Source of the DNA: Escherichia coli
GTDB lineage: Bacteria; Pseudomonadota; Gammaproteobacteria; Enterobacterales; Enterobacteriaceae
NCBI RefSeq assembly: GCF_030013205.1
Contig: NZ_CP122648.1
Reading direction: 5' to 3' (one strand)
DNA: 64,000 nucleotides
Below are positions 4,275 through 5,071 of this stretch, piece after piece (position 1 is the stretch's first letter; every line of letters starts with the position of its first letter). The translations under genes were made by a program, and so were the position numbers. The notes under the pieces are model-generated. The model saw only the letters and a list, made by a program, of their open reading frames with translations, had not been told where the DNA came from and did no database searches.

Positions 4275-4553
4275 TTATCCACGAAGTATGACGTTGAATT
4301 CATCCATACCGACACGGCTGGCTATCTCGTTGTATTCCTCAACAAGAGCCAGCAATTCTGAATTAGCAGCCATGAACTCTTCAAAAACCTTATGGATGGC
4401 ATCACTGTTTAATAAAACAATGTTCTTTCCTGAAAGGCGATCAGGGGTAGAAAATATAACTGTCAAACGACTAAAGGCCCTGGCTCGTTCAGCATTAACA
4501 TCCTCAATACGCTGCAACAAGCTGGAGCACCTGGAAATATCATCAATATTCAC
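4275..4553 (-). CDS. Hypothetical protein, 92 aa
   Basis: GTG start with AGGAG SD 5 nt upstream; no recognisable family; preceded by a 518-bp non-coding leader. Confidence 0.45.
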   Translation of the reverse strand: MNIDDISRCSSLLQRIEDVNAERARAFSRLTVIFSTPDRLSGKNIVLLNSDAIHKVFEEFMAANSELLALVEEYNEIASRVGMDEFNVILRG

Positions 4554-5071
4554 TCTACTCCTGCCATCTGGATGATAATCATTTCACGGAGAGAAGCACT
4601 CAGAAGTACCACTGAAGTATAGCTGGCGACCAGCTACTTACACATCTATTGCCATCCTGCTGATGATAAGTCGACATTAGCCCTTCTGTCTATAAACGAA
4701 ACAAAGGATAAGTTCAGGTTTTAAACACACTGCCAGGATAAAGTATTGCATACAGTATAGAAGAGCGTTATTGAATGACATAAAAAACCAGACCTAATCC
4801 CTTATCCGGAAGATATATCAAATAAACGGGGAAAATGTATTAAGATGGCGTTCCTATTCTCTCCATCCCTGATGTCCACGTAACTCGTTATAGAATCAGA
4901 ACGCCATCTGAATACACACAAAAAAGCTGGCTTCACACCCTCCAGATGTGTGAACGCAGTGCCCGACCACGTGCTTTCGCAACCAGCACAAATCATTTTA
5001 AAGCATCGAAAAACGATCAGAATATATCAGAACTTCCTAGCATCCTGCTTGGCTTAGATATTAATCGAGGA

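Follow-up and report, generated by a model that had tools for sequence, protein, structure and literature searches.

The 64,000-nucleotide stretch of Escherichia coli DNA analysed here (contig NZ_CP122648.1 of assembly GCF_030013205.1; the window) carries a degraded lambdoid prophage, whose late operon, read on the minus strand, contains a non-coding gap of exactly 518 bp (4554-5071) between the stop codon of a DNA methyltransferase gene and the GTG start of a 92-codon open reading frame (ORF92). Within this gap lies the hairpin I1 (4836-4916, minus strand), whose 25-bp stem is imperfect and whose apical region measures 31 nt. I1 is a real conserved RNA structure on the sense strand of the late operon, a hairpin motif supported by covariation and absent from Rfam, and it is the single notable result in a locus that, I1 and ORF92 apart, is an ordinary prophage mosaic. 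It is preceded by a branched hairpin, T2 (4920-4987, minus strand), which is probably an intrinsic terminator. We consider it an even call whether the two act as proposed below, T2 as a terminator in the lysogen and I1 as a processing or stability hairpin for transcripts antiterminated by Q.

Hairpin I1 and the mosaic gap that holds it

The preliminary description of this DNA had noticed, in the 518 bp upstream of ORF92, an 11-bp inverted repeat, a nested hairpin followed by a U-run and a 17-bp palindrome, and all of these features are present, within 2 nt of where it had placed them. The 11-bp repeat (4843-4853/4899-4909) is perfect, as happens in only 2 of 300 dinucleotide shuffles, and it forms the core of 25-nt arms (4836-4860/4892-4916) that are 88% complementary, with 22 Watson-Crick pairs, one G·U pair and two mismatches; the 91-nt hairpin folds with z = -5.16. 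Homologous loci are referred to here as classes A, B, C and a distant class D. Across classes A to C, 97% of the cells in the alignment of I1 are paired, versus 40-49% when the partners are slid, and every one-sided change leads to a G·U pair. Further hairpins of the I1 type are found twice at the locus of a distant ORF92 homologue of 40% identity (L213), and also at L217-L222. When ten divergent copies are aligned, 91% of the cells are paired, versus 33-44% with partners slid, compensatory double changes occur at 11 of the 24 pairs, and none of 500 shuffles reaches the observed values for covariation, pairing or double changes, so that the folding and covariation analysis of homologous loci, which the preliminary description had named as a check, bears out the repeat. 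By a hand count, about 37 of the 236 cells in this alignment are G·U pairs; read from the other strand, each would become an A·C mismatch, and it is therefore on the late-operon strand that the structure is selected. Conservation extends to the basal sequence TGYATTCARATGG...CCATYTKAATRCA, and the T5-6 run of the upstream hairpin directly precedes I1 in every class, distant class D included.

As to the novelty of the motif, Rfam covariance models gave no match at E ≤ 1 between positions 3000 and 8000, and at E ≤ 10 between 4540 and 5080 gave only spurious hairpin matches, of at most 17.6 bits; the thresholds of the models for tRNA (RF00005), STnc100 (RF02076), AsxR (RF02703) and AgvB (RF02702) are not reached in the gap.

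The conservation of the gap is uneven. The segment 4994-4836, comprising T2 and I1 and called the module below, is the sole part of the 518 bp that recurs elsewhere, with about 80% identity in seven further genomes (by sensitive BLAST). At two loci (L003 and L005) its counterpart is located some 270 bp downstream of a DUF1133 Q-like gene with a pR'/tR'-like unit of its own, and is followed by tRNA-Thr, tRNA-Gly and holin genes; at two others (L004 and L210) it is located just past a methyltransferase gene, about 500 bp upstream of a holin gene. None of these four loci carries an ORF92 homologue. Conversely, the ORF92 homologues of phage mEp460_ev081 and of prophage PP5 of enteropathogenic E. 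coli (EPEC) E2348/69 have tRNA genes and unrelated sequence upstream, and no module. As the module occurs without ORF92, it is not the leader of ORF92, and the idea of a 518-bp structured leader for this gene is not supported. The same picture emerges when 15 distinct class-A variants are compared: the share of alignment columns that vary is 0% at the 3' end of the methyltransferase gene, 9% in T2, only 1.2% (1 of 84) in I1, 18-30% in 4835-4585, where 7- and 11-nt deletions are also found, and 6.8% in ORF92. The 518 bp are thus a mosaic intergenic stretch without a single leader, in which 4994-4836 is a separate module, independent of ORF92. The methyltransferase-proximal spacer (4995-5071, minus strand) is found in class A only, is not common to classes B and C, and holds no conserved structure or promoter.

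T2 is the most sequence-conserved block across relatives. It is a four-way-junction, cloverleaf-like hairpin whose nested parts, TTCACAC (4932-4938) and GTGTGAA (4948-4954) inside GCTGG (4926-4930) and CCAGC (4983-4987), are those first noticed, and whose closing stem of 7 bp (GCUGGUU/AGCCAGC, 4987-4981/4932-4926; five of the pairs are G-C or C-G) abuts a U6 run (4925-4920). The consensus fold computed by RNAalifold is identical in classes A, B and C: an outer stem of 7 bp encloses a GAAA mini-hairpin and a pair of 6-bp hairpins; indels and substitutions are confined to the loops, and the stems change only to G·U. No double compensatory changes are found in T2 in these classes, and its structural support is therefore weaker than that for I1. 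T2 occupies the slot in which related prophages carry tRNA genes, yet fails all tRNA tests.

A number of other identities were considered for parts of the gap and rejected. A promoter seen by eye just upstream of T2 (TTCTGA-16-TAAAAT) is lost in half of the class-A variants. The gap holds no conserved open reading frame, in agreement with the preliminary description: in relatives, the candidate for a hidden small protein gene, a 64-aa open reading frame at 4802-4996, has no ATG and is interrupted by indels. A miniature inverted-repeat transposable element or an insertion sequence (IS) is not indicated either, the sequence being single-copy with no target-site duplication seen by eye, and no second copies of the features of the gap were found within the window. 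A scan of metagenomes recovered classes A and C only, while a pattern scan of genome contigs returned only chance matches, the pattern being too degenerate for this to establish an absence outside E. coli prophages.

A proposed role for T2 and I1 in late transcription

The location of the module sets the frame for any proposal of its function. The late promoter and terminator unit of this prophage (pR'/tR', 7534-7640, minus strand) directly follows the Q antiterminator gene (7648-8319, minus strand; PF06323 at 1e-89): the pR'-type sequence TTGCAA-17-TATATT (7640-7612) is located 8 bp past the Q stop, and about 50 nt downstream of the -10 hexamer comes the tR' hairpin ACCCG...CGGGT (7558-7541) with its T7 run (7540-7534). 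The 518-bp gap is therefore not the pR'/tR' unit itself; it belongs to the late operon and to its "moron" interval, which separates pR'/tR' from the lysis genes. The pR'-tR' unit also predicts a constitutive short RNA of about 65-70 nt, analogous to lambda 6S RNA or StxS.

We propose that in the lysogen T2 would stop transcripts of the methyltransferase gene, along with any leak through tR', before they enter the lethal lysis genes, and would in this way protect the lysogen from lysis-gene expression. I1 would be transcribed only on read-through of T2, for example by Q-modified polymerase after induction, and might then serve as an RNase III-type processing or stability hairpin that separates or stabilises the upstream and downstream parts of the late transcript. 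We infer that transcripts would end at T2 and be cut or stabilised at I1, and that a promoter within 4835-4554 may be in use.

Each half of this proposal has precedents. RNase III processing hairpins are represented by the inter-cistronic R sites of T7, by the rpsO-pnp leader and by the retroregulatory sib site of lambda, and the first two are the model for the role proposed for I1. Like these, I1 is a long (at least 22 bp), slightly imperfect double-stranded stem between cistrons, here just downstream of a putative terminator, and like these it can be repeated as a homologous family within one phage region, as shown by the two I1-type copies in L213. I1 provides at least 20 bp of mostly Watson-Crick double-stranded RNA (about two helical turns), as expected of an RNase III substrate, and the structure is kept in all classes. 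Unlike the known hairpins, the candidate substrate I1 is conserved in sequence at the basal stem and loop, and unlike sib it does not include the terminator itself. For T2, the precedents are found in lambdoid late operons, where "morons" are flanked by intrinsic terminators that Q-modified RNA polymerase passes (Juhala et al. 2000, as cited in PMC4104026). Like those and like tR' of lambda, T2 is located between Q/pR' and the lysis cassette and consists of a stem followed by a U-tract on the late strand; unlike them, it is a four-way junction and not a simple GC hairpin, keeps its sequence from one mosaic context to the next, and invariably has a long hairpin coupled to it downstream.

Several observations weigh against this proposal. 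The stability of T2 is no better than that of shuffles (z = -0.59), T2 is not called by a consensus terminator scan, and its closing stem encloses a branched structure of about 48 nt, which is non-canonical for a terminator. The nested hairpin with a U-run of the preliminary description nevertheless is a terminator-like, sequence-conserved structure on the transcribed strand. As for I1, the basal 11 bp and much of the loop are conserved in sequence beyond what pairing demands, which suggests a specific partner beyond a generic double-strand nuclease. In class D, a domain with weak similarity to STnc100 (23 bits, E = 0.044; a 49-nt match of 80% identity) comes after the I1-type hairpin, the unit ending in a strong terminator, and this fits a role related to small RNAs (sRNAs) at least as well. 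Finally, the module is found upstream of only about 10% of holins of this type (57 versus 346 genomes), and is therefore dispensable for insulating the lysis genes, an accessory element of the cassette.

A bolder version of the proposal, which we regard as speculative and rather unlikely, would see in the T-run and I1, with or without T2, a family of phage RNA elements, so far undescribed, that couple Q antitermination to RNA processing. These would act as a switch of the retroregulation type in late operons, kept silent in the lysogen by the stop at T2, made only in read-through RNA, and changing by cleavage of the hairpin the fate of the flanking RNAs, namely the methyltransferase mRNA upstream and, downstream, the ORF92 or lysis mRNAs or, in class D, the 5' end of sRNAs resembling STnc100 and PasD. 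Alternatively, what the conserved base and loop of the hairpin attract might be a particular protein, of the phage or of the host. If I1 does act in processing or as a switch, late-gene control in lambdoid phages would gain a post-transcriptional layer, in the very interval where Shiga toxin genes, tRNAs and sRNAs linked to virulence are found in pathogenic E. coli, and such processing might explain the 5' ends of sRNAs such as STnc100/PasD.

Other readings of the module

The strongest competitor, which we hold to be credible though clearly less probable, is that T2, I1 or both are a discrete trans-acting sRNA, which could originate from the 3' untranslated region (UTR) of the methyltransferase gene or by processing of the late transcript, could bind Hfq or ProQ, and would act on host or phage mRNAs. 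Models for it are available in StxS, PasD/STnc100 and AsxR/AgvB, all from the same "moron" interval of lambdoid prophages, the stretch from pR' to the lysis genes being a known hotspot of sRNAs (PMC4104026; PMC7547250; PMC8550237; bioRxiv 10.64898/2026.05.13.724894). T2 ends in a stem and U6, the usual 3' end of Hfq-type sRNAs, both T2 and the I1 loop are conserved not in structure alone but also in sequence, and the STnc100-similar domain of class D, with its strong terminator, points in the same direction. However, no conserved promoter is found upstream of T2, and in classes B and C another hairpin with a T5 run is located only about 20 nt upstream; nor does the gap offer a credible Rfam match or similarity to PasA, PasC, STnc100 or PasD.

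The comparison with the individual sRNAs is similarly divided. Like the module, STnc100/PasD/EcOnc13 belong to the late "moron" interval and have the sense orientation, with DUF3927, TerB and ORF92-type genes nearby (bioRxiv 10.64898/2026.05.13.724894), but the true STnc100 and PasD loci of E2348/69 lack an I1-type hairpin. The true STnc100 of PP5 follows just after the ORF92 homologue and DUF3927 (123.6 bits). An STnc100/PasD identity for the gap was rejected, as no similarity was found, including in the sequence downstream of I1. The anti-sRNAs PasA/PasC and AsxR/AgvB share the neighbourhood of RusA, DUF1627, TerB and holin genes (bioRxiv 10.64898/2026.05.13.724894; PMC4104026), but they are convergent, antisense to the late operon and next to the holin gene, and have no Rfam match in the window. 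An identity with PasA or PasC is rejected as well: blastn-short gave only chance matches of 7-13 nt, and the module is in the sense of the late genes, PasA/PasC being on the opposite strand. StxS and lambda 6S RNA, the short pR'-tR' transcripts (PMC7547250), are likewise non-coding products of antitermination architecture in the lysogen, but their counterpart here is the unit at 7640-7534, 2.5 kb upstream of the gap. In the supplements of the EPEC RIL-seq data (sequencing of ligated pairs of interacting RNAs), nothing was found for the region of the ORF92 homologue.

Units of this kind are also seen in unusual arrangements. In L213, the late region of a single prophage holds two copies of a non-coding unit of about 400 nt (2058-2456 and 3634-3952), each with a T-run and an I1-type hairpin at its start and the terminator CCAyCTyCCyGTGAGGTGG with a T8 run at its end; the second copy has a sub-threshold match to the Rfam STnc100 model (23 bits) and may be an undescribed relative of STnc100/PasD. 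A class-D-like unit with the hairpin (L222, 3501-3797; NZ_CP086259.1) is located outside any obvious prophage in four E. coli genomes, next to the insertion sequence IS5, about 420 bp upstream of a gene for a ricin-type lectin domain and beside type II secretion genes.

It is improbable that the inverted repeats act as DNA, as a recombination "linker" at a mosaic boundary or as a binding site for a protein. It is true that the module is found exactly at mosaic junctions, with flanks that differ between prophages, that the basal arms TGYATTCARATGG and CCATYTKAATRCA are highly conserved, and that the arms of two copies (L218 and L220) are near-perfect palindromes on both strands. Yet many of the one-sided changes lead to G·U pairs on the late strand, which would be mismatches in duplex DNA or on the other strand, the compensatory changes of the upper stem keep the pairing and not the sequence, and the arms are about 56 bp apart from centre to centre, unlike those of usual operators.

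Still less probable is a function of the whole 518 bp as a cis-regulatory leader of ORF92, be it an attenuator, a riboswitch or an RNA thermometer, with an operator at the palindrome. The stretch is, to be sure, on the same strand as ORF92 and holds several hairpins, and the 31 nt just upstream of the GTG are common to the mEp460 homologue. Against this stand the separate occurrence of module and gene, the rapid evolution of 4835-4585 and its tolerance of deletions, and an attenuator-type alternative pairing of I1 with downstream sequence that is at the level of shuffles. The palindrome TAGCTGGCGACCAGCTA (4620-4636, no strand assigned), which precedes the GTG by 67 nt, does not exceed chance and is probably fortuitous: a perfect 7-bp stem like its own is found in 46 of 300 shuffles, it is perfect only in the sub-lineage of the window, with most relatives reading CAGCTGGTCACCAGTTA, and the 5' UTR around it folds no better than shuffles (z = +0.41). 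An 11-nt deletion adjoins it in L051. Of the earlier suggestion of a terminator combined with a regulatory RNA or operator, a terminator-like fold and a structured RNA downstream of the methyltransferase gene remain, and the operator does not.

It is scarcely credible that T2 should be the remnant of a tRNA gene or a decoy resembling a tRNA: the four-way junction of 62-66 nt, with three hairpins and an outer stem of 7 bp, the tRNA-Ile gene 50 bp past the homologous methyltransferase gene in PP5, and the tRNA-Thr and tRNA-Gly genes that adjoin the module in classes B, C and D would all fit, but ARAGORN finds no tRNA, the Rfam tRNA model gives no match at E ≤ 10 in a 541-nt search, and T2 has no T-loop or D-loop motif, no U33/R37, no CCA or discriminator, and a "D arm" of only 2 bp.

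ORF92, its upstream spacer and the surrounding prophage

ORF92 (4275-4553, minus strand; RefSeq WP_001017777.1) is a genuine small phage gene, coding, and part of a conserved block, ORF92-TerB-DUF3927, ahead of the lysis genes. It starts at GTG 4553-4551, with AGGAG at 4562-4558, 4 nt upstream, just as had been read from the sequence, and both the GTG start and the length of 92 codons are conserved. The ratio of nonsynonymous to synonymous substitution rates (dN/dS) is 0.25 against the homologues of 61-63% identity from E2348/69 PP5 and mEp460, and 0.09-0.13 within class A. The protein matches phrog_2873 alone (E = 9e-47, residues 1-92), with no match in Pfam, NCBIfam, the PADLOC families or the sequences of the PDB, and the family is tiny, with just 19 representative clusters among 1.84 billion proteins in an exhaustive profile search. 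The AlphaFold (AF2) model (predicted local distance difference test score, pLDDT, of 86) shows a helix, a beta-hairpin and a helix, in a topology like that of prefoldin beta; prefoldin beta is also the best match in the PDB, but at E = 0.046 this is not significant, and it was rejected as a fold match. Membership of ORF92, TerB, DUF3927 or DUF1883 in a defence system was likewise rejected, PADLOC being negative.

In most class-A prophages, and also with the homologue of 40% identity, ORF92 is followed by TerB, DUF3927 and holin genes, and it can be seen as a recurrent phage gene that keeps company with TerB and DUF3927 in front of the lysis cassette. The full-length homologues of 61-63% identity (L212, 1174-1449, about 1287673-1287948 of NC_011601.1; and L002, 5867-6145) are unannotated in the records of E2348/69 prophage PP5 and phage mEp460_ev081; the order in PP5 is methyltransferase, tRNA-Ile, tRNA-Arg, ORF92 homologue, DUF3927, STnc100. 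In the window, ORF92 is followed by an intrinsic terminator (4228-4251, minus strand; hairpin AGCTCGC-TACT-GCGAGCT at 4251-4234 and a T-run; z = -2.87). With this terminator of its own downstream and its location between Q and the lysis or structural genes, ORF92 has two of the features expected of a "moron". Here too the likeness to moron-flanking terminators extends to a canonical terminator at ORF92 and to a distant homologue bracketed by terminators: in L213, strong terminators are located 55 nt upstream of the start and just downstream of the gene. As terminators stand on both sides of that homologue, ORF92 may depend on Q as a late gene and not be a moron with its own promoter.

The segment between I1 and ORF92 (4835-4554, 280 bp) is a fast-evolving filler that may hold a weak sigma-70 promoter; its part 4835-4585 evolves faster than ORF92 and is the fastest part of the gap. 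Two promoter-like sites, TAGACA-N18-TATCAT (4663-4692, minus strand; sigma-70) and ATGTCA-N16-TATACT (4781-4754, minus strand), are candidates, and either could drive ORF92. The hexamers are kept in 14 of the 15 class-A variants; such matches are not enriched (3 found versus 5.2 expected from shuffles), and the sites are unconvincing. The same segment contains H-C (4703-4807, minus strand), made of weaker long-range inverted repeats (4784-4803/4703-4722 and 4796-4807/4736-4747; z = -2.05), which is partly conserved in class B as a different, 20-bp hairpin and loses part of its 5' arm to the 7-nt deletion in L050.

The prophage region has close copies in 50 of 5,426 complete E. coli genomes. 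It is 100% identical to a lambdoid prophage, likewise degraded, that adjoins tRNA-Ser and the hya operon in porcine E. coli K_EC180. The order of the late operon, on the minus strand, is Q, pR'/tR', a gene for a 167-aa membrane protein, a small hypothetical gene, the DNA methyltransferase gene, the 518-bp gap, ORF92, its terminator, the holin gene (3082-3447, minus strand) and truncated tail genes. The methyltransferase gene (5072-6157, minus strand; RefSeq WP_000228659.1) encodes an N6/N4 enzyme (Pfam PF01555 at 1.5e-42; PADLOC MTase_II at 8e-153). On the minus strand no promoter-like site is found in the 150 bp before its start, and a terminator-like hairpin with a T-run (6304-6321, minus strand) coincides in part with the stop of the preceding small gene. 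Between the ORF92 terminator and the holin gene sits a DUF1883 gene of opposite orientation (3581-3916, plus strand); in the window and in L055 it takes the place of the TerB-DUF3927 pair after ORF92 (L050-L054 and L056 compared). The prophage is heavily deleted: in 1-3500 of the window and in L001, fragments of tail-assembly, J and tail-fibre genes directly follow the holin gene, and the endolysin gene, the head genes and most tail genes are therefore missing. The window itself seemingly starts within the flanking tRNA-Ser. The K_EC180 copy carries IS1 in the 167-aa gene, and the copy in the window is free of it. A ParD/ParE toxin-antitoxin pair is encoded at 10078-10703 (plus strand), in the nin-like region of the prophage and on the strand opposite to the phage genes.

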